A DNA stretch of 32,000 nucleotides from an uncultured Eubacteriales bacterium (GCA_934395135.1 CAKRRK010000001.1:255375-287374); one strand, 5' to 3'. Positions 2,484 to 30,511 are shown, counted from the first letter of the stretch. The notes: generated by a model from the letters alone, not told the origin. Translations and numbers: made by a program.

Positions 2484-3485
2484 TTAGCTTTTCGCGGTTT
2501 CCAGCATTTCGTCAATAAAAATGCCATATCCCCGCTGGGGATCGTTTACCAAAACATGCGTCACCGCGCCTACCAGTTTTCCGTTTTGCAGAATGGGGGA
2601 ACCGGACATTCCCTGCACAATGCCGCCTGTCTTTTCCAGGAGTTTCGGGTCGGTAATGCGGATCATAAAGTTTCTGCCGCTTTTATCGGCGGAGGCAATC
2701 TTCAGGATTTCTGCGGTGTACGCTTCCACCCGGCTGCCCTCCACATTGGCGAGGATTTCCACCGGGCCGGTGGTCACTTCGGAAAATTCTGCCGTAGGAA
2801 CGGTCTGTTTCCCCTGATAGAAGCTGCCCTGCGTCACCGTCCCAAAGATGCCGCTGTCGGTATTTTTCTCAATGGTGCCAATATCCGATGAAAATTGAAA
2901 TTCCCCTTCCAGCTCTCCCGGTGCGCCTACTTCCCCTTTCTGCACCCCTGCCACAGAGGATTCTGTGATGGCGCCTTCCTTCATAGGGATAAGCTGGCCG
3001 GTTTCACTGTCACAAATGCCATGGCCCAGAGAACCGTAATCTCCCGTCTGGGGATCAATATAGGTGATGGTGCCGATTCCTGCCATACTGTCCCGTATCA
3101 TTACGCCAATTCGATATTTTCCGTCCATGGAACGCACCGGCGCGACGGTGCAGGTATTTTCCTGCTCCTGCCTTCGGTAAGCGATCCGGATCGCTTCCCC
3201 GTTGCTTTGAAAAATGGTTTGCCGCAAATCTTCATTGGAAAGCACGTTTTTACCGTTTGCGGAAATAATTACGTCGCCTTCCTGCAGGCCTGCGTCTTTT
3301 GCCGGAGTCTTCTCGCCGCTTTCCGTCTGCACCGAGGAAAGTTTGACAATCACCGCCCCGTCCGTCGAAAGCTTGATGCCTACTGTCTGTCCCACTGGAA
3401 TCAGTTCCTGCGCAAACACGGTTGTAATGGTAAGAAGGACGGTCAAAAACAGCGAGGCTGTCATTTTAACTGCCTTTTTTTGCAT
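2484..3485 (-). CDS. spoIVB: SpoIVB peptidase (S55 signalling serine protease with PDZ domain)
   Basis: 333 aa. It has an N-terminal signal/TM segment, a PDZ-like GLQEGDVIISANGK, and the S55 catalytic region GGIVQGMSGSPILQNGKLVGAVTHVLVNDPQRGYGIFIDEML. The spoIVB-spo0A adjacency is conserved. The RBS is AAAGGAGGTG. Confidence 0.92.
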   Translation of the reverse strand: MQKKAVKMTASLFLTVLLTITTVFAQELIPVGQTVGIKLSTDGAVIVKLSSVQTESGEKTPAKDAGLQEGDVIISANGKNVLSNEDLRQTIFQSNGEAIRIAYRRQEQENTCTVAPVRSMDGKYRIGVMIRDSMAGIGTITYIDPQTGDYGSLGHGICDSETGQLIPMKEGAITESSVAGVQKGEVGAPGELEGEFQFSSDIGTIEKNTDSGIFGTVTQGSFYQGKQTVPTAEFSEVTTGPVEILANVEGSRVEAYTAEILKIASADKSGRNFMIRITDPKLLEKTGGIVQGMSGSPILQNGKLVGAVTHVLVNDPQRGYGIFIDEMLETAKS

Positions 3486-3712: not shown

Positions 3713-3741
3713 TTGCATATATTTTTTTCTTTTGCTATACT
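3713..3741 (+). promoter_or_regulatory. Putative sigma-A promoter for the SLOG/DUF2493 gene
   Basis: TTGCAT (3713-3718), a 17-nt T-rich spacer, then TATACT (3736-3741). It lies about 80 nt upstream of the ATG at 3822. Confidence 0.4.
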
Positions 3742-3821
3742 AAAAACAGAACGGTATGCTGGCGTTGGAATGCTGTTCCTCCGCCGCATTGTATTTGAAC
3801 TGTTTTGGAGGGAACGCACCT

Positions 3822-4181
3822 ATGAAAGTCGCCGTCATTGGTTCCAGATGTGCCGACGAATCCAGCTATCTGCCGCTATGCGAGGCAGTGCCTTTGGGCG
3901 CCAGCGAAATCCTGTCCGGCGGCGCGCCTGGCGCGGACGCCCTTGCAAAGCGTTATGCGGCGGAGGGCGGCCTTTTGTTCCGGGAATTTCTGCCAAACTA
4001 TGAACGATACGGAAAAAACGCGCCGCTGGTCCGCAATGCGGAAATCGTTCAGCACGCCGACTATGTCATCGCTATCTGGGACGGCGTATCCAAGGGCACC
4101 GGCTCTGTCATCATGGAATGCCTGAAAACATATACGCCGGTCAAGGTAATTGGCTGCAGCCCATCTTCCAAGCCTTTGTAG
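3822..4181 (+). CDS. SLOG-superfamily / DUF2493-like small protein (DprA/LOG-like Rossmannoid fold)
   Basis: 119 aa, starting at an internal ATG preceded by GGAGGG with 9-nt spacing. MKVAVIGSR...ILSGGAPGADALAKRYAAEGG...PNYERYGKNAPLVRNAEIV..ADYVIAIWDGVSKGTGSVI matches my recollection of the DUF2493/SLOG pattern: GxR, GGAxGAD..A..wA, then yG..A...RN. The family call is from memory and has not been searched. Confidence 0.65.
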   Translation: MKVAVIGSRCADESSYLPLCEAVPLGASEILSGGAPGADALAKRYAAEGGLLFREFLPNYERYGKNAPLVRNAEIVQHADYVIAIWDGVSKGTGSVIMECLKTYTPVKVIGCSPSSKPL

Positions 4182-4354
4182 CATTCCGCAATTGGCTGCT
4201 GCAATACGCATAAGCCGCTGAAAATTCCTTCCGGTGCTTTTGGTCCGTTTCTTTGGCGTGACCACATGTTTCATTTTAACTTATTGATATATTTTTTATT
4301 TATATTACAATTTGTATATTTTCAAACGCCGCGGCGACGGACAAACGAATACAC

Positions 4355-4381
4355 AAAACGGACAGCTGAGCTGTCCGTTTT
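4355..4381. terminator. Bidirectional rho-independent terminator between the convergent SLOG gene and the P-loop gene
   Basis: AAAACGGACAGC-TGA-GCTGTCCGTTTT forms a perfect 12-bp stem. An A-run sits on one side and a T-run on the other, so it can terminate both strands. It lies 18 nt after the stop of the minus-strand operon. Confidence 0.8.
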
Positions 4382-4398
4382 CCTCTGTTCCGCCAAAA

Positions 4399-5331
4399 TC
4401 AAGAATATGTTGCAACCTCCACCTTGGGCGGCATCGCCGGCTCAAATGACTGAAATACCAGCACCGGACCTTCTCCCATATAAATTTTGTGATATTCCTT
4501 TGTCATCCTGGCCGTAAGACGAATCCACTGATTGTTTATGAGCCGCAGTTCCTCGCCGCATCGGCACACCACGGCCTTGTATGACAGATCCTCTATGTTG
4601 CATGTCATTACCATCCGGCCAATGATAAAATCATATTGGTTCACGCGAAATTCCGTGTTGACCATTCCATGCAAGACAATGACCTTGTCCTGGTATTTTT
4701 CCGGCGCTTCGGTAAAGTCCCGGTGCCACACAGCATAGTCCGCATCCCGCAGCACAATCGTATCCCGGGTAATGTCATACGGCAGAATGTCCGGCAAATC
4801 GTCGATTTCCAGCCGGCCGTCTTCATATTCATACACAATTTCACAATTGCGGTTTATCGCCCGCACGGTTTTGTGCAGCGCCGCTTTTTCCATGTCTTTG
4901 CCGCAGCGGTTCAGCACCACCCGGGTGCAGCCCATCAGCTTGTCTGTTACATAACTGCGGGCATACTGGTCATACTGCGGATATACCCGCCCGTCCCCCA
5001 GAACGATTTCCTGCTCGAGAAACCAGCCGTCCGGCAAGTTGTCCCGCAGGAATTTCATCGGCCAGTTTCCATTCATCTCCACAATAACCCGTTGTGGATG
5101 CAGTTCGTCGTTCCAGTCGGACAATGTGAAAAAATTCAAGGCGGTATGCTCGTGTATCGTTTTGATCGTGCTGTTCTGCGGCATGTCTTTTTCTTCCAGC
5201 CGCGCTTCCCCCTGCTCTGTCAAAATGACAAGCAGCCCGCCGTCCGGCACGCCGTTCTTCAGCCGGCGCCGAATGTATGTGGTTTTTCCCGCGCCGGGAA
5301 ACCCACTGTAAACTTCCACCGGTACCCTCAT
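4399..5331 (-). CDS. Atypical G3E (CobW/HypB/UreG)-like P-loop NTPase fused to a DUF1980/TIGR03943-like C-terminal domain
   Basis: The start is the internal ATG (MRVPVEVYSGF) with a GGAGGG RBS. Walker A is GFPGAGKTT, the CobW-like layout LVILTEQGE...VIVEMNGNWP is kept, and the NKxD is degenerate (LNRCGKD). The CobW CxCC metal motif is absent. The C-terminal ~110 aa (KVIVLHGMV...FIIGRMVMTCNIEDLSYKAVVC...QWIRLTARM...GPVLVFQSFEPAM) resemble the soluble C-terminus of TIGR03943/DUF1980 proteins, from memory. Confidence 0.55.
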   Translation of the reverse strand: MRVPVEVYSGFPGAGKTTYIRRRLKNGVPDGGLLVILTEQGEARLEEKDMPQNSTIKTIHEHTALNFFTLSDWNDELHPQRVIVEMNGNWPMKFLRDNLPDGWFLEQEIVLGDGRVYPQYDQYARSYVTDKLMGCTRVVLNRCGKDMEKAALHKTVRAINRNCEIVYEYEDGRLEIDDLPDILPYDITRDTIVLRDADYAVWHRDFTEAPEKYQDKVIVLHGMVNTEFRVNQYDFIIGRMVMTCNIEDLSYKAVVCRCGEELRLINNQWIRLTARMTKEYHKIYMGEGPVLVFQSFEPAMPPKVEVATYS

Positions 5332-5356
5332 CGCTTTCCCTCCTGCTGTTTTTGCT

Positions 5357-6379
5357 TTAAAACGCATACTGCCCGTCCTGATTGGTGTATTTTACAAGAC
5401 AGTGAAGATATTCTGTGGTTTTTTTTGCCTTATGTTTCCGGTTTGCTTCTTTGTCCGCCCGGAAACGCCGATGATCCTTGGACACCACATCGTATCTGCC
5501 ATATTTCTGCATAATGTTCCGTATGGTCTCAAAGGACATCAGCCCTTCGTTATTATAACTCAAAAAGATATATTTAAAATTGGCCCGCCGAATGATGGTT
5601 TCAAAGTCGCCCGCCACATTCCGTTTGGAGCAAAAGCCGCTTTTTCGGGCTGTTTCCTTGCGCAGACCGGTTTTTCCCATCAGCGCCGGGCTGTCATACC
5701 GGGATATGGTTTCCAGCAAATGATAATTGGCGTTATACTGCCGGGCATTGTAGGGCGGATCCAGATAGAGCACCTCGCCCCGGACTTCTTCGATAAGGTC
5801 GCTGACGTCCTGGTTATACACCCGGCCGAGAGGCCCGTCCGGCGCTGCCAGCGGTTCAATGACAAACCGCTTTTCCGCCGCCTTTTTAATGTGCTTCAGA
5901 TGCGCCCCATAGACAGACGCGGTATTGGCATATTTGTCAATGGAATTTAAAACGCTCGCCAGGCAGAACCAATATTGGTCGTCGCTGATCTCTCCCGCGT
6001 CATACATCCGCTGCAGTTCCTGCCGCACCGCGTCGCATTTTTTTCCGTTTTCGTCCGTAAAATAAATGCGGCCGCTGCCGGACCCCTGGCAATAATTGTT
6101 ATACACAAACCCCTCCACACCGGACAGGCTGTTCAGATAGTCAATTTTGTCCCGGGGCAAATCCGCCGGATTGCCAATCAAATGACGGTTGATGGCATAG
6201 CTGTAATGCTGGAAATCATTGGCAATGACAAAACTGCCGTTTTCCCGGAACTTTGCGCCCACAACTCCGGTGCCCGCGAACAGGTCGGCAAATACTTTTC
6301 CTTCCAGATGCCCCGTCACATCGGTAATCGCAGTATATAAAAAATCCAGAATGGAATATTTGGAACCGATGTAATTCAT
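5357..6379 (-). CDS. N6-adenine DNA methyltransferase, D12 class (alpha motif order), FokI-N-domain/NlaIII-like branch
   Basis: It starts MNYIGSKYSILDFL. Motif I is FADLFAGTGVVG and motif IV is LYLDPPYNARQYNANYHLLETISRYDSPALMGKTGLR. The later FLSYNNEGL closely follows the pattern I recall for the M.FokI N-terminal half. The ATG at 6379 overlaps the TGA of the upstream WYL gene (ATGA). Confidence 0.85.
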   Translation of the reverse strand: MNYIGSKYSILDFLYTAITDVTGHLEGKVFADLFAGTGVVGAKFRENGSFVIANDFQHYSYAINRHLIGNPADLPRDKIDYLNSLSGVEGFVYNNYCQGSGSGRIYFTDENGKKCDAVRQELQRMYDAGEISDDQYWFCLASVLNSIDKYANTASVYGAHLKHIKKAAEKRFVIEPLAAPDGPLGRVYNQDVSDLIEEVRGEVLYLDPPYNARQYNANYHLLETISRYDSPALMGKTGLRKETARKSGFCSKRNVAGDFETIIRRANFKYIFLSYNNEGLMSFETIRNIMQKYGRYDVVSKDHRRFRADKEANRKHKAKKTTEYLHCLVKYTNQDGQYAF

Positions 6380-7398
6380 GCTTGCCTTTCCTCCCCGCTG
6401 CAATACATTGCTTTTACACTGCTAAGGTAGTCTGTAAACTGCCGCCGGATTTCCAGCGGCGAAACAATTTCCACACCGTCTGCCAGACCAAACAGCCAGC
6501 CAAAAAACTGCGGGCTGACCTGCGCCCGAACTGTGACGGAAAAATGGTCGGTTCCGTCGGGCACCAAAATCAGCTCTCTGCCGAACCGCTCCGTTACAAC
6601 GCCCACCAACCGGTTTTCAAAACGCAGCGTTACCTGTTCCTGCGCACCGGCAAACATGCCGAACAGCATCTGAGAATACAGCGCTGTATCAAACCGCTCA
6701 AACGCACTTTTTCCCTGGCGTTTTCCGTCTGTAATGCGGATATCCTGCATTTTGTCTACCCGGTAATGGCGAACTTCCCGGGTATGCTCATCAAAGGCCA
6801 CAAGATAATAGTTTTCGTTATCCCAGATAAGCGCCCAGGGGGAGACGGCATAGTCCCCGCCATTCCGGCGGAAACGTTTTGTCACCTTTTCCGGGGCTGA
6901 CCAGTCCAGCACCCATTCAAAATATTTCATCCGGATACAGCAGTCCTGCTGGATCGCCTGATGGATGGTGTCAATGTTGTAATACACGCTGTGGTTCATG
7001 GTTTTGATCCGGTTTGTGACAAACACCTGATGCTGCAGCTGCCTGGCTTCGTACTTTGACGCCAGTCCCTCCAGCTTTTGAATGAGTTCTCCCGTCTTTT
7101 TATGGGTAATAAACCGGGACGCCTGCACCGCATCCACCAACAGCTTGAGTTCCGGAAGTTCAAACGGCCGGCTCGCCATATAGTAGCTGTAATGCCTGCC
7201 GGGGCGGGTTTCAATATCATACCCAAATTCCCGCAGCACGGCAATATCATCGTACACGCTTTTTCGCTCCGCATGAATCTGCCGACGCGAAAGTTCCATT
7301 AGAATTTCTTGCATCGTCACAGGATGCGCTTCATCTGTCTGCGCCAAAATCTGGAGCAAATGCAGCAGTTTTCCCTTTTGATTGGCACTTTTCGCCAT
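6376..7398 (-). CDS. HTH-WYL-WCX transcriptional regulator (YafY/PafBC/BrxR/CapW-like)
   Basis: The N-terminal wHTH is KLLHLLQILAQTDEAHPVTMQEILMELS...SVYDDIAVLREFGYDIE. The central WYL domain is YAVSPWALIWDNENYYLVAFDEHTREVRHYRVDKMQDIRI. The C-terminal WCX-like region is VTLRFENRLVGVV...FFGWLFGLADGVEIVSPLEIR. The ATG at 7398 is preceded by AAGGGAG; the TTG at 7407 in the track is less likely. Confidence 0.85.
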   Translation of the reverse strand: MAKSANQKGKLLHLLQILAQTDEAHPVTMQEILMELSRRQIHAERKSVYDDIAVLREFGYDIETRPGRHYSYYMASRPFELPELKLLVDAVQASRFITHKKTGELIQKLEGLASKYEARQLQHQVFVTNRIKTMNHSVYYNIDTIHQAIQQDCCIRMKYFEWVLDWSAPEKVTKRFRRNGGDYAVSPWALIWDNENYYLVAFDEHTREVRHYRVDKMQDIRITDGKRQGKSAFERFDTALYSQMLFGMFAGAQEQVTLRFENRLVGVVTERFGRELILVPDGTDHFSVTVRAQVSPQFFGWLFGLADGVEIVSPLEIRRQFTDYLSSVKAMYCSGEERQA

Positions 7399-7669
7399 AG
7401 GCCCCAACTCCCTTACTGCCTATTCTATCAAAAACCCATGGGAATGTCTAATAAAAAAGTCGAAATCTGCCTAATTTCTCCGCTGGATAAATCTGGAACG
7501 CCTGCCATGCCGCCGCAAGACAGGGATCCGACGATTTATGCCGCCATTGCTGTCTCTCCAAGGGTTTTCCTGTCCCGGTATTTTTAATCCAACATGGAAG
7601 AATTTTTGTGATTTTTTTGAATTTTACCGAATTTTTTCTTGAAATTGCAAGTATTTTAGCCGAATTGTA

Positions 7670-10356: not shown

Positions 10357-11205
10357 TTATATGCGGCGCAGGATGCCAATCCCCAGGGTGGATGGACCGC
10401 AATGGCTGCCAATGGTACATCCCGTAATGTTTTCGATAATCTTGACACCAGGCAGAAACTTCCGGATTTCTCGGCGCACTTCTTCCAGCACATCGCCCGG
10501 CGCCATTGCATGAGTCATCAAAATCGTGCCGCGCTGGATGGACGGACGGTTTTCCAGCTTATCCCGTATATAGTGGCAGACGCTGCGCTTTAGGCTGCCC
10601 CGATATTTTTTCCCCACTCTCAGGCTGCCGCCGCACATTTCAATGCAGGGCTTGAGTTTGAGCAGATTCGCCCCCAAGGCCACAATGGCAGAACACCGGC
10701 CGCCCATATGCAGATAGGACAGGGTATCCACGAGGAAACTGACCTCCATTTGACGCCGCAGTTCGGAAAGCTTTTCCAAAATTTCCCCCGCGCTGCTGCC
10801 CCGCCTTGCCAAATCCGACGCTTCCATCGCCAGGTACCCGGAGGCGGAGGATACATTTTGGCTGTCAAACACATACACATTTTCATAGTTTTCCGCGGCG
10901 ATCCTGGCATTTTGATGGCAGGAGGTCAGTTTGCTGGAAATATTGATGTGGATCACCGTGTAGCCTTCCTTTCGGTACCGCCGGAAGACTTCCTCATATT
11001 CGTAGCTGCTGATTGCCGCCGTGGTAGGCAGCTGTCCCGTACTGTCTACAATGCGGAATACATCCGGCAGACGGATATTCACCATATCCAGATACTGCTT
11101 TCCGCCGGAAATCACATGAACCGGTATGGGCATGATCTGGTACGCCCTATAGGTTTCACTGCTTAAATCACAGGCAGAATCGCATGTGATTTTAATCTTT
11201 TCCAT
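10357..11205 (-). CDS. DegV family fatty-acid-binding protein (FakB-type)
   Basis: 282 aa. [15 protein letters not shown]..., ...[13 protein letters not shown]..., and the length and layout are typical of DegV/FakB. Confidence 0.85.
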
Positions 11206-11425
11206 GCATTAACTTGCTCCCTTAACTGTTATTTTTCCCGATAAATATTCAAATTTTTCAGCCCGATAACTTCATTTTTTTATCACTTGCTCACCATATT
11301 TTATCATGCTTCCCTGCTTTTCCAGAACTCTTTTTCCACAATTCATAATTTGTTTACATTTGCATAAAAATTTCTTGGTATCCTTTCGTTTTCGTGCAAT
11401 ATTTTTCGCAAAACACAAAAACTTC

Positions 11426-11454
11426 TTGTATATACCATCAAAGTGAGATAAAAT
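11426..11454 (+). promoter_or_regulatory. Putative sigma-A promoter of asp23-yloV
   Basis: TTGTAT (11426-11431), a 17-nt spacer, then TAAAAT (11449-11454). It lies about 50 nt upstream of the ATG at 11507. Confidence 0.4.
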
Positions 11455-11506
11455 AGAAAAAGCTATAAGGAATTACAGCCCATCTTGTTTTAAAGGAGGT
11501 CATTCT

Positions 11507-24124: not shown

Positions 24125-25201
24125 ATGAAAAAATTAATTGCTCTGTGCCTTGCAGCTGCTGTCTGCTTTTCGTTTGCCGGCTGCGGCACACCGGACGCTG
24201 CGGAGACAACCTCCGATGTCGCAAGCGATGCGGTGGTGATGACCGTCGGTGATACGGAAATTACCGCGGACCTTCTGGCCTCGTATATTACAAACAACAA
24301 AGTCAGCTATGAGATGTATTATCTGGAAAACTTTGGCCAGGGCGATACCTCCTCCCTTTGGGAAGATCCGGACACCTGCAGCATGATTTTGGAAAATGCC
24401 AAATCCCAGATTATTTTTGATACGGCCACGGTACAGCTGGCGGCGGAACTTGGGCTGGTTCTTTCGGACGAAAACCGCGCCAATATGGAAACCACCAAAG
24501 AAACCTATATTGCACAGCTTGGTTCTGAGGAGGCCTTTTTGGAATATATCCATACCATGGGATTCCGCGAAACGGAGTTTGACAAAATCCTGGAGGCCGC
24601 CGAATACCAGCGGCTGATCGAAGACTATTATTACGGAGAAAACGGACAGACTCCGGTTTCGGAGGAAGATATCCAGGCGTATTACAACGACCATTACTAT
24701 CGTGCCAAGCACATTTTGATCAAAACCGTGGACGACGCCTTCTCTCCCCTCGGCGATGACGAAATCGCGGAAAAGGAAGCCCTTGTCAACGATCTTGTTT
24801 CCCGCGCAAACAGCGGCGAAAATTTTGACGCGCTGATTGCGAAATACGGCGAGGATCCAGGGATGGAAACCAGCCCGAATGGTTACACCTTCTCCGCAGA
24901 AGATAACTTTGTCTCGGAATTCATCGACGGCACGGTGGCCTTGGGCGTCAACGAAATTTCCGGCGCAGTGGAAAGCGCCTATGGATTTCATATCATCCAG
25001 CGTCTTCCGCTGTTGGAAGACACCCTGTATGCGGAAGACGGCTCGGTAAGCGGCACATCCATTTATGATGCTATCCGTTCTTCCCTGGCGGATGTCAGCG
25101 CCCGGATCAACGACTACATCAATGATAAGATCACCGTAACGGTGCACGAAGAAATCTATGACAAGATAACGGTGCAAAACGCCGGCAGTTTGCTGGAATA
25201 A
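24125..25201 (+). CDS. prsA: Peptidylprolyl isomerase, PrsA-like lipoprotein (parvulin type)
   Basis: The lipobox is LAAAVCFSFAGC. The parvulin motifs YRAKHILIKT, ...GYTFSAEDNFVSEF... and AYGFHIIQRLP are present. The RBS is AAAGGAG. Confidence 0.8.
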   Translation: MKKLIALCLAAAVCFSFAGCGTPDAAETTSDVASDAVVMTVGDTEITADLLASYITNNKVSYEMYYLENFGQGDTSSLWEDPDTCSMILENAKSQIIFDTATVQLAAELGLVLSDENRANMETTKETYIAQLGSEEAFLEYIHTMGFRETEFDKILEAAEYQRLIEDYYYGENGQTPVSEEDIQAYYNDHYYRAKHILIKTVDDAFSPLGDDEIAEKEALVNDLVSRANSGENFDALIAKYGEDPGMETSPNGYTFSAEDNFVSEFIDGTVALGVNEISGAVESAYGFHIIQRLPLLEDTLYAEDGSVSGTSIYDAIRSSLADVSARINDYINDKITVTVHEEIYDKITVQNAGSLLE

Positions 25202-25227
25202 TTCCCTGCCCCCCTGCCGCATTTCTC

Positions 25228-25260
25228 GATAATCGCAAATGGCTTGCGGTTATCGTTTTG
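25228..25260 (+). terminator. Rho-independent terminator after the second PrsA gene
   Basis: GATAATCGCAA-ATGGC-TTGCGGTTATC forms an 11-bp stem with one G-U pair, followed by GTTTTGCTTT. Confidence 0.65.
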
Positions 25261-25454
25261 CTTTCGCTTCTTTTTTGAATGGAAACCGAAAATTTTGCAA
25301 ATACTTCGAATAATGAACTTTTTCTTTCTAATACAATTTTTGTATAGATTCCACAGAAAGTTTGTACTTTTTTCCCTGTATTTCCAAAAGCATGTGGATA
25401 GCTTTTGATTTTTTCGAATTTCTCTTGTTTTTTTATCATAAATCTCTTGTAATT

Positions 25455-25482
25455 TTGTTAATAAAATGTTAATATCTATAAT
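25455..25482 (+). promoter_or_regulatory. Putative sigma-A promoter of the radical SAM gene
   Basis: TTGTTA (25455-25460), a 16-nt spacer, then TATAAT (25477-25482). It lies about 80 nt upstream of the ATG at 25565. Confidence 0.5.
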
Positions 25483-25491
25483 GATTTATAG

Positions 25492-25514
25492 TACGCATGC
25501 GAATGCATTGCGTA
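25492..25514 (+). promoter_or_regulatory. Inverted repeat just downstream of the predicted start site (5'-UTR hairpin or operator)
   Basis: TACGCATGC-GAAT-GCA(T)TGCGTA forms a 9-bp stem with a single bulged T, or equivalently 6-bp outer arms TACGCA/TGCGTA. It starts about 10 nt after the -10 box. Confidence 0.4.
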
Positions 25515-29990: not shown

Positions 29991-30053
29991 GCTATTTCAC
30001 TCCTAAATATCAAGTTTATGAAAGAATTCCTTTCACTTTCCTTACGATATCTT

Positions 30054-30082
30054 ACAATACCATATAAAATTTTCTTTGTCAA
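30054..30082 (-). promoter_or_regulatory. Putative sigma-A promoter of the minus-strand operon
   Basis: On the minus strand: TTGACA (30082-30077), a 17-nt spacer ending in TGG, then TATTGT (30059-30054). Confidence 0.45.
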
Positions 30083-30092
30083 AAAAATTACC

Positions 30093-30121
30093 TTGATTTT
30101 TGGATAATTCTGGTGTATAAT
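30093..30121 (+). promoter_or_regulatory. Orphan plus-strand sigma-A-like promoter, back to back with the promoter above
   Basis: TTGATT (30093-30098), a 17-nt spacer, then TATAAT (30116-30121). No credible CDS follows before the terminator at 30247. Confidence 0.4.
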
Positions 30122-30127
30122 TTAGAT

Positions 30128-30292
30128 ATTCCAATAAAGTTTATAATTTTGTTACATAAGCTTTAATTTTTACTTGGTAATTAGAAATGGAAACGATGGT
30201 TTTGTTTCCCAATTTCTTTTTATTTCTCTTTTATCCCTTTATTACAGAAACAGGAACTCTTTCCCCCATAAGAGTTCCTGTTTCGCTTTTTT
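30128..30292 (+). ncRNA. Candidate small RNA or terminated leader (promoter-to-terminator unit of about 165 nt)
   Basis: It is bounded by the promoter at 30093-30121 and the strong terminator at 30247-30292. It contains an internal hairpin GGAAAC-(9 nt)-GTTTCC (30189-30209). The only ORF here (84 aa from 30187) lacks an RBS and reads through the terminator. Confidence 0.3.
30247..30292 (+). terminator. Strong rho-independent terminator with no upstream plus-strand gene
   Basis: GAAACAGGAACTCT-(10-nt loop)-AGAGTTCCTGTTTC forms a perfect 14-bp stem, followed by GC and TTTTTT. The minus-strand reading lacks a T-run, so it is plus-oriented. Confidence 0.8.
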
Positions 30293-30424
30293 CAGACTTG
30301 TCCATTGCCGCTCTGCGCCTTTCAGAGCAACAAAAAGCACTGAATAATCATAATATTCAGGAGAAAAATAGCGGTAATGCCAACGATAAATTCTTTGTCC
30401 AAGCGTTTCCCCTTTCTCTGGCTG

Positions 30425-30453
30425 TTGACAAACATTTGTGATTCACTTACAAT
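30425..30453 (+). promoter_or_regulatory. Putative sigma-A promoter of the polysaccharide locus
   Basis: TTGACA (30425-30430), a 17-nt spacer, then TACAAT (30448-30453). It lies about 60 nt upstream of the GTG start at 30512. Confidence 0.5.
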
Positions 30454-30511
30454 TAAATGATATGGATATGTTCGAACGAATGCTTTTTCATACAATTCTA
30501 TGAGGTGAACT

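Follow-up and report, generated by a model that had tools for sequence, protein, structure and literature searches.

A solitary, probably CATG-specific DNA methyltransferase gene behind a WYL regulator gene in a four-gene chromosomal block of an uncultured Eubacteriales bacterium

Introduction

A solitary adenine methylase that is fixed in its species and native in composition bears the usual signature of an epigenetic or housekeeping enzyme; Dam, CcrM and C. difficile CamA are familiar orphan N6-adenine (m6A) methylases. Solitary enzymes also occur in families otherwise known from restriction-modification (R-M) systems. The IceA1/hpyIM locus of Helicobacter pylori has been described as an NlaIII-like CATG system in which hpyIM is the methylase, and hpyIM is often kept in H. 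pylori where a mutation has disrupted iceA1 (PMC13340068). The NlaIII/HpyI family therefore offers a precedent for a methylase without an intact nuclease partner. The analysis reported here concerns a solitary member of that family encoded in a 32,000-nucleotide stretch of DNA from an uncultured Eubacteriales bacterium (GCA_934395135.1, CAKRRK010000001.1:255375-287374), referred to throughout as the window. The methyltransferase gene lies in a block of four genes at 3.7-7.4 kb, where it follows a gene for a WYL-domain transcription regulator and precedes a gene for a P-loop nucleoside triphosphatase (NTPase); a SLOG/DUF2493 gene faces these three.

Regulators with the architecture of the WYL protein include BrxR, CapW, DriD and PafBC, and approximately 48% of BrxR homologues are encoded upstream of known defence systems (PMC9122601). 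An initial annotation, made from the sequence of the window, had read the four genes as a conflict or defence module, or else one for epigenetic regulation, in which the WYL regulator would gate DNA modification and the NTPase and/or the SLOG protein would be partners. The results presented here point in a different direction. It is probable, although by no means certain, that four genes with histories of their own have come to lie side by side in one lineage without forming a dedicated system, and that within this block a WYL regulator of a common kind has become coupled to an intact, solitary and probably CATG-specific methyltransferase.

Results and Discussion

An intact methyltransferase that is solitary at its locus

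The methyltransferase matches PF02086, the D12 class (2e-41; 142.8 bits against a cut-off of 22), and the PADLOC model MTase_II (1.5e-104), in agreement with the initial annotation of an m6A methyltransferase. The S-adenosylmethionine-binding motif I (FxGxG) and the catalytic DPPY that, together with the profile match, place a protein in the D12 class are both present. Every column that is invariant in 25 homologues is kept, including motif I (DLFAGTG) and DPPY, and for this reason the enzyme looks active. The nearest non-self relative is 65% identical, and thousands of relatives are 50-65% identical over 97% of the query length. The remainder of the protein is a C-terminal tail of approximately 10 amino acids that is not common to the homologues; its position, where relatives usually begin a second methylase, hints at a recombination junction. 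Sequence searches found no homologue of solved structure.

Eighty genomic loci around methyltransferase homologues were fetched and the neighbouring genes clustered, and 80 viral loci were examined as well. An ICEA nuclease (approximately 208 amino acids; PF05315, 3.5e-64) lies beside the homologue in 35 of the 80 genomic loci, and this neighbourhood is found across the whole 50-65% identity range. A second methylase, of the N6_N4 type, is near the homologue in 44 of the 80, directly downstream (9-31 nt) in several. Other loci carry four further recurrent putative nucleases, and ICEA-like open reading frames (ORFs) are also found beside viral homologues, including those in giant-virus metagenome-assembled genomes. 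The methyltransferase of the window is thus orthologous to methylases paired with ICEA (IceA1/R.NlaIII). However, tblastn of ICEA and five other recurrent partner families against the window gave no match, the second methylase likewise was not found, and no free ORF remains between 3.5 and 7.7 kb to encode a cognate nuclease. Since the ICEA nuclease and the second methylase of most relatives are missing from the locus, the enzyme is solitary, at least locally.

The methyltransferase resembles M.NlaIII and M.HpyI (hpyIM), D12-class alpha-type N6-adenine methylases of approximately 330 amino acids, the likeness being drawn through a family with ICEA-adjacent members. Unlike the NlaIII/IceA1 R-M system, the locus has neither ICEA nor another nuclease and no second N6_N4 methylase, and its methyltransferase sits in a WYL-led operon and carries the unique 10-residue tail. 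With Dam, CcrM and CamA, as generally understood, it shares a solitary state, fixation in the species and native composition, but it belongs to a different sequence family and is unusual in being coupled translationally to a WYL regulator.

CATG specificity is predicted because the family pairs with ICEA, the IceA1/R.NlaIII family, which belongs to a CATG system; on this basis the enzyme would probably write Cm6ATG. The sole indirect support for CATG methylation comes from the window itself, in which CATG is under-represented (observed/expected 0.66, z = -5.6). It seems likely that such a solitary enzyme would serve in orphan epigenetic marking and/or in protecting the chromosome from the CATG-cutting systems that are common in neighbouring gut Clostridia.

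Several features of the wider family were also recorded. Across the 80 genomic loci, the place beside this one methylase family is taken in alternation by at least five families of putative nucleases that are unrelated to one another. Most clostridial NlaIII/ICEA-type loci have two methylases, D12 and N6_N4, though CATG is palindromic. On giant-virus metagenome contigs (IMG/VR, GVMAG), methyltransferase homologues at 36-39% identity adjoin ICEA-like nucleases, pairs that we take to be reminiscent of the chlorovirus CviAII CATG system.

The family context raises the alternative that the gene is a relic of a CATG R-M system that lost its nuclease and second methylase, with no regulatory tie to the WYL protein, whose targets would then be its own gene and/or the gene of the P-loop protein. 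Relatives of the methyltransferase reside overwhelmingly in R-M systems, the tail suggests recombination exactly where the second methylase normally begins, and WYL homologues carry many different downstream genes, all as expected of a relic. Against this, the enzyme is intact at all family-invariant positions, compositionally ameliorated and fixed in the species, which argues for retention under selection and not for decay. Moreover, the locus contains no pseudogene remnants and no spare intergenic space, and a four-nucleotide overlap ties translation of the methyltransferase to the WYL cistron. A relic of this sort is unlikely, while retaining enough in its favour to be taken seriously.

The four genes are not found together in the other loci sampled

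Co-occurrence was sampled with tblastn and family hidden Markov models in 160 methyltransferase loci (the 80 genomic and 80 viral loci), 12 WYL loci (4 chromosomal and 8 viral) and 5 NTPase contexts. Homologues of the NTPase or the SLOG protein were present in none of the 160 methyltransferase loci, and the only trace of a WYL protein was a single, non-adjacent fragment in one of the 80 genomic loci (0/80 viral). The reverse searches gave the same picture: homologues of the methyltransferase, NTPase or SLOG protein were absent from all 12 WYL loci, and homologues of the WYL protein, methyltransferase or SLOG protein from all 5 NTPase contexts. A conserved multi-gene module is rejected on this sampling by the absence of partners both around methyltransferase homologues, the one WYL fragment aside, and in the reverse direction.

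The block is native in composition and fixed in the species

The initial annotation had supposed that the block is more AT-rich than its surroundings. The calculation shows otherwise. The four genes have a GC content of 0.50-0.56, a GC content at third codon positions (GC3) of 0.60-0.65 and codon-usage distances of 0.30-0.35, except that the short SLOG ORF reaches 0.47, and in GC, GC3 and codon usage they fall within the range of the other genes of the window. A compositional island is ruled out by this likeness to the flanks. As the initial annotation had noted, the ORFs between 3.5 and 7.7 kb include no nuclease, integrase or transposase; in addition, no flanking direct (att-like) repeats and no tRNA were found around the block. 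The identical arrangement is present in every conspecific contig (encoding an identical SpoIVB or methyltransferase) that is long enough to show the locus, and among these contigs variable presence of the block was not seen. With native composition, constant presence and none of these marks, a mobile element or genomic island is also rejected.

Beyond the species, no SpoIVB in the collections searched exceeds 47% identity, and the nearest Spo0A is approximately 47% identical (window 2484-3485); the organism is phylogenetically isolated in those collections. A metagenome scan of SpoIVB relatives found an adjacent spo0A in many, the other genes of the window in none, and nothing common upstream of spoIVB. 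The customary adjacency of spoIVB and spo0A is kept.

Two further properties of the window were observed. Relative to second-order Markov expectation, several 4-bp palindromes are under-represented (CTAG 0.15, GGCC 0.53, ACGT 0.65, CATG 0.66, CGCG 0.67 and GTAC 0.68), which suggests long-term restriction pressure at several sites. Three intergenic stretches are strongly AT-rich compared to the window mean GC of approximately 0.52, namely 30001-30500 (0.31), 11001-11500 (0.38) and 25001-25500 (0.39), and none of the three matches an Rfam family at the gathering threshold.

A WYL regulator heads the probable operon

The first of the minus-strand genes encodes a protein with HTH_11 (8.5e-5), WYL (2.8e-11) and WCX (1.7e-9) domains, as the initial annotation of a WYL regulator would predict. 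It belongs to a large family with thousands of clostridial homologues, at up to 58% identity, that is rare on viral contigs (8 loci). Four distinct chromosomal contexts of relatives at 53-58% identity were examined, all from Clostridia. The WYL gene heads the cluster in three and follows a DUF5131 gene in the fourth, and in two of the four the next gene abuts it (4-nt overlap or 1-nt gap). The downstream genes differ: a small ORF, Cdd1 and an HD hydrolase in the first context; flavodoxin and an HD hydrolase in the second; a HAD hydrolase, RluA, a methyltransferase and an aminotransferase in the third; and an alpha/beta-hydrolase and AATase in the fourth. An NRDD-like gene is divergent from the WYL gene in the first two. 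The regulator belongs to a common, chromosomal family of Clostridia whose members stand at the head of operons that differ in their cargo. A common upstream motif that could serve as operator was not found among the WYL homologues. As a separate observation, the NRDD-like gene in those two lineages encodes 92 amino acids and an HD hydrolase lies a few genes downstream, an arrangement that hints at a nucleotide-pool or DNA-damage regulon.

The initial annotation had likened the protein to BrxR and CapW. The likeness holds for architecture, in that the protein has the same order of winged helix-turn-helix (wHTH), WYL and WCX domains as BrxR, CapW, DriD and PafBC and is encoded by the first gene of its operon. 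It does not extend to sequence. A PDB-wide phmmer search (E <= 0.01) returned five WYL-domain regulator chains, 7u02, 7tzv, 9cu3, 9pfq and 8tp8, the closest of which, for example 8tp8, matched at E of approximately 1e-6 to 4e-6. The best solved-structure matches, albeit weak, are thus WYL-WCX regulators (7u02, 8tp8), and these two chains are presumably Caulobacter DriD. The BrxR chains (7QFZ, 7T8K) and the CapW chains gave no match at that threshold. For BrxR similarity Picton et al. used BLASTP at E < 1e-5; the window protein has the BrxR architecture but lacks the sequence similarity and has no known defence system downstream. Its close relatives, unlike BrxR and CapW, head metabolic or housekeeping operons.

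The interval contains exactly four credible genes by ORF calls, one on the plus strand and three on the minus strand, flanked by spo0A and spoIVB on one side and nagB on the other, in the place and orientation given by the initial annotation (Table 1). Its description of tight packing is also accurate. The WYL stop and the methyltransferase ATG share the sequence ATGA (6376-6379), and a 25-nt gap with a GGAGGG ribosome-binding site separates the methyltransferase stop (5357) from the NTPase ATG (5331). The WYL ATG (7398) is preceded by an AAGGGAG ribosome-binding site. A hairpin with 13-nt arms, 100% complementary and flanked by an A-tract and a T-tract, lies between the convergent NTPase and SLOG genes; the NTPase stop is 18 nt away from it and the SLOG stop 174 nt. 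This perfect inverted repeat corresponds to the bidirectional terminator that had been proposed. On the minus strand, a consensus scan listed no promoter-like site from 7216 to 4399.

Table 1. Features of the block (coordinates are those of the window)
Feature	Position	Strand	Basis and remarks
Promoter-like site for SLOG gene	3713..3741	+	TTGCAT, 17 nt, TATACT, TGn upstream of -10; read directly from sequence, not listed by consensus scan; candidate only
SLOG/DUF2493 (YAcAr) gene, 119 aa	3822..4181	+	Profile matches; phage-type singleton
Intrinsic-terminator-like hairpin, bidirectional, AAAACGGACAGCT-G-AGCTGTCCGTTTT	4355..4381	.	Inverted repeat and A/T runs
Divergent CobW/G3E-like P-loop domain fused to DUF1980_C (OB-like barrel), 310 aa	4399..5331	-	Pfam, family alignment, AlphaFold 2/Foldseek
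Solitary D12-class N6-adenine DNA methyltransferase, 340 aa, NlaIII/HpyI-type family, predicted CATG	5357..6379	-	Pfam, PADLOC, neighbours of homologues
wHTH-WYL-WCX transcription regulator, 340 aa, first gene of the operon	6376..7398	-	Pfam domains
Best promoter-like site for WYL-methyltransferase-NTPase operon	7422..7450	-	TAGACA, 17 nt, TGnTAGAAT; consensus scan 10/12 plus TG extension; candidate only

The ATGA overlap, the short gap with its ribosome-binding site, the one hairpin and the lack of an internal minus-strand promoter-like site are consistent with a single transcript, which would most likely run from the promoter-like site upstream of the WYL gene to the hairpin. The overlap would couple translation of the methyltransferase to that of the WYL regulator. 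It seems likely that the regulator autoregulates the genes downstream of it and in this way sets expression of the methyltransferase; single-stranded DNA (ssDNA) or another ligand may be the signal, on the model of DriD, CapW and BrxR. Of the WYL-gated DNA modification that had been proposed, a core consisting of a WYL-coupled solitary methyltransferase thus stays plausible from the anatomy of the locus, whereas the NTPase and SLOG protein do not qualify as partners.

A direct repeat, CTGCCTATTCTATC (7416-7429) and CTGCCTAATTTCTC (7467-7480), with a spacing of 51 nt, brackets this promoter-like site and is a candidate operator, although a search upstream of WYL homologues gave no equivalent of it. 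The spacer between the -35 and -10 elements of the same site contains an 8-bp palindrome, CCCATGGG (7435-7442), that includes the predicted CATG target. It is plausible that the palindrome is there by chance, CATG occurring approximately once per 320 nt in the window. Another promoter-like site (TTGATA, 16 nt, TACAAT; 10/12) was seen in the AT-rich spacer after the SLOG gene (4284-4385, plus strand), approximately 45 nt upstream of the hairpin. With the hairpin it could give rise to a plus-strand transcript of approximately 65 nt, which has no Rfam match; an Rfam search of the intergenic regions found no known RNA element, either at the gathering threshold or at E <= 1.

The operon could also be read as an inducible epigenetic or self-immunising module, in which the WYL regulator, in the manner of its relatives, senses ssDNA, DNA damage or a phage-derived ligand and switches on both the CATG methylase and the P-loop protein with its OB-like domain. 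If so, the module could transiently raise CATG methylation against CATG-cutting nucleases from mobile elements, or reprogramme gene expression, and the CCCATGGG palindrome could provide methylation feedback on the operon's own promoter. A switch of this kind is improbable.

The third gene encodes a divergent CobW/G3E-like protein

The initial annotation had described the product of the last operon gene as an atypical P-loop NTPase. The P-loop is present (Walker A GFPGAGKT), but the protein is not an orphan fold. Pfam gives DUF1980_C (PF21537; 59 bits, 5e-16) and, weakly, cobW (1.9e-5). In the AlphaFold 2 model (predicted local distance difference test score, pLDDT, 89), Foldseek relates the N-terminal domain to YjiA (8e-7), HypB and UreG and the C-terminal domain to the OB (oligonucleotide/oligosaccharide-binding) folds of RPA14/32, CST, SSB and AsnRS. 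The protein is a divergent CobW/G3E-like GTPase fused to a DUF1980_C domain that is modelled as an OB-like barrel. Sequence searches found no homologue of solved structure, and the literature on DUF1980, TIGR03943 and YcgQ offered nothing functional.

An exhaustive HMMER search defined a family of approximately 934 clusters at 50% identity and of the same length (435 clusters at E <= 1e-10), with the signature GFLESGKT...CEEGE...EYNGMW...FNRC...MTCCADD. The best non-self match is only 35-36% identical to the window protein, which nevertheless keeps all 21 invariant columns, including Walker A, E39/G41, E85-N87-G88-W90 and N141-R142; its one loss is the nearly invariant second cysteine of MTCC, which reads MTCN. 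The protein shares the Walker A P-loop and the SIMIBI G3E fold with COG0523/G3E metallochaperones (YjiA, ZigA, CobW, HypB, UreG), and the typical CobW Walker A, GFLGAGKT, is found in the CobW encoded at one locus of its relatives (L087). Unlike these proteins, it lacks CxCC and NKxD, as does the rest of its family (NRCG stands at the NKxD position), and ends in DUF1980_C in place of CobW_C. The TIGR02475 and ZigA models score it far below their cut-offs.

The relatives lie directly downstream of a His-rich COG0523 CobW, or of its CobW_C end, in four of five independent contexts, and this setting is one of metal handling, not DNA modification. The window gene does not follow a His-rich COG0523 gene, and tblastn found no CobW partner gene in the window. 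It is reasonable to suggest that the gene is a displaced metal-handling paralogue that would merely be co-transcribed with the WYL and methyltransferase genes. Relatives were seen at L087 (6823-8930), L090, L133 and L224, and a 72-amino-acid ORF precedes the gene in L087-L092.

The position of the gene, 25 nt after the methyltransferase stop, is the slot of the second methylase in several homologous loci, and the protein could be thought to act on DNA with the methyltransferase, perhaps by loading it in an NTP-dependent manner or by determining its specificity. The modelled resemblance of its C-terminal domain to the ssDNA-binding folds of RPA, CST and SSB would suit such a role, as would its divergence from the rest of the family (best identity 35%, MTCC to MTCN). 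However, a DUF1980_C protein is found in none of the 160 methyltransferase loci and a methylase in none of the five NTPase contexts. OB-like barrels are not specific for nucleic acids, predicted permease subunits (TIGR03943) likewise end in DUF1980_C, and G3E GTPases such as YjiA, HypB and UreG are metallochaperones. Of the alternatives raised by the locus, a joint action of the two proteins on DNA is the least credible.

The SLOG gene is a phage-type singleton

The identification of the plus-strand gene as SLOG/DUF2493 is marginal by Pfam, PF10686 (YAcAr) scoring 28.6 bits against a cut-off of 28.2, and is backed by phrog_289 (2.4e-18) and by tblastn matches, down to 1e-24, to proteins annotated as DUF2493/SLOG, including plasmid ones. 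The 119-residue reading uses the same start as the gene callers and is preceded by a GGAGGG ribosome-binding site. Homologues occur in 388 phage records, the best at 48.6% to a Ruminococcus phage. The protein shares phrog_289, the DUF2493 annotation and a GGAxGAD-type motif with the DUF2493/YspA-type SLOG proteins of phages and plasmids, but, unlike these, its gene stands on the chromosome without surrounding phage genes. The SLOG gene is probably an independently transcribed, phage-derived DUF2493 singleton.

A defence module is not supported

The properties of all four proteins bear on the proposed conflict or defence module, in which the WYL regulator would be the gate, the methyltransferase would carry out the modification and the NTPase and/or the SLOG protein would be a sensor or effector partner. 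In keeping with it, the WYL protein has the architecture of BrxR and CapW, and the frequency with which BrxR homologues precede defence systems makes such a setting conceivable; the genes of the operon are closely spaced, the SLOG gene is a phage-type one, and the OB-like barrel modelled for the NTPase could in principle bind nucleic acid. However, the sampled loci of the methyltransferase, WYL and NTPase families yielded no adjacent partner, PADLOC has no model for the NTPase or the SLOG protein, and no nuclease or other effector domain was found. The recurrent neighbour of the NTPase family is the His-rich COG0523 protein and not a DNA-modification gene, and solved BrxR and CapW chains gave no detectable match to the WYL protein, whose relatives head housekeeping operons. 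The initial annotation itself had seen no fit to BREX or DISARM, and indeed the PADLOC signature proteins (PglX, PglZ, BrxC, DrmA and others) are absent, only the MTase_II/oMTase and generic WYL models giving matches. The proposal does not survive the finding of a species-fixed block of native composition, free of mobile-element marks, whose homologues are not co-localised in the other loci sampled; fixation with native composition and the lack of co-localisation are two conditions under which the initial annotation itself had said that it would fail. A dedicated defence function is very improbable.

Points that weigh against the favoured reading

Several considerations count against a chance juxtaposition with a WYL-coupled, CATG-specific methyltransferase at its core. 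Co-transcription and control by the WYL regulator were deduced from gene spacing alone. The predicted specificity derives from family membership at 50-65% identity, and several other putative nuclease families also adjoin homologues; CATG is not depleted more strongly than GGCC or CGCG. A cognate nuclease could be encoded elsewhere in the genome, beyond the 32-kb window. The co-occurrence sampling is thin for two of the families (4 chromosomal WYL contexts and 5 NTPase contexts), and a genuine functional tie, beyond the reach of sampling among distant homologues, could underlie the tight, species-conserved packing of the three unrelated genes. Finally, relatives between approximately 58% and 90% identity are absent from the collections, a gap that would hide the order in which the block was assembled.

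Significance

It is more likely that the block is ordinary, made up of members of already known kinds, and it carries little weight as a discovery. It serves as a caution that conflict-type domain content, here a WYL protein, a methylase, an NTPase and a SLOG protein, can arise by chance juxtaposition. Two families nevertheless emerge as new leads. One is an uncharacterised family of approximately 900 clusters that joins a CobW-like GTPase to an OB-like DUF1980_C domain and is usually encoded after His-rich COG0523 metallochaperones. The other is the WYL family, widespread in Clostridia, which heads operons with interchangeable downstream genes. With regard to the organism, WYL-controlled methylation is plausible. 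If the methyltransferase is active, the NlaIII/HpyI family would gain an orphan member coupled to a WYL regulator, encoded by an uncultured, spore-forming Clostridium of the gut.

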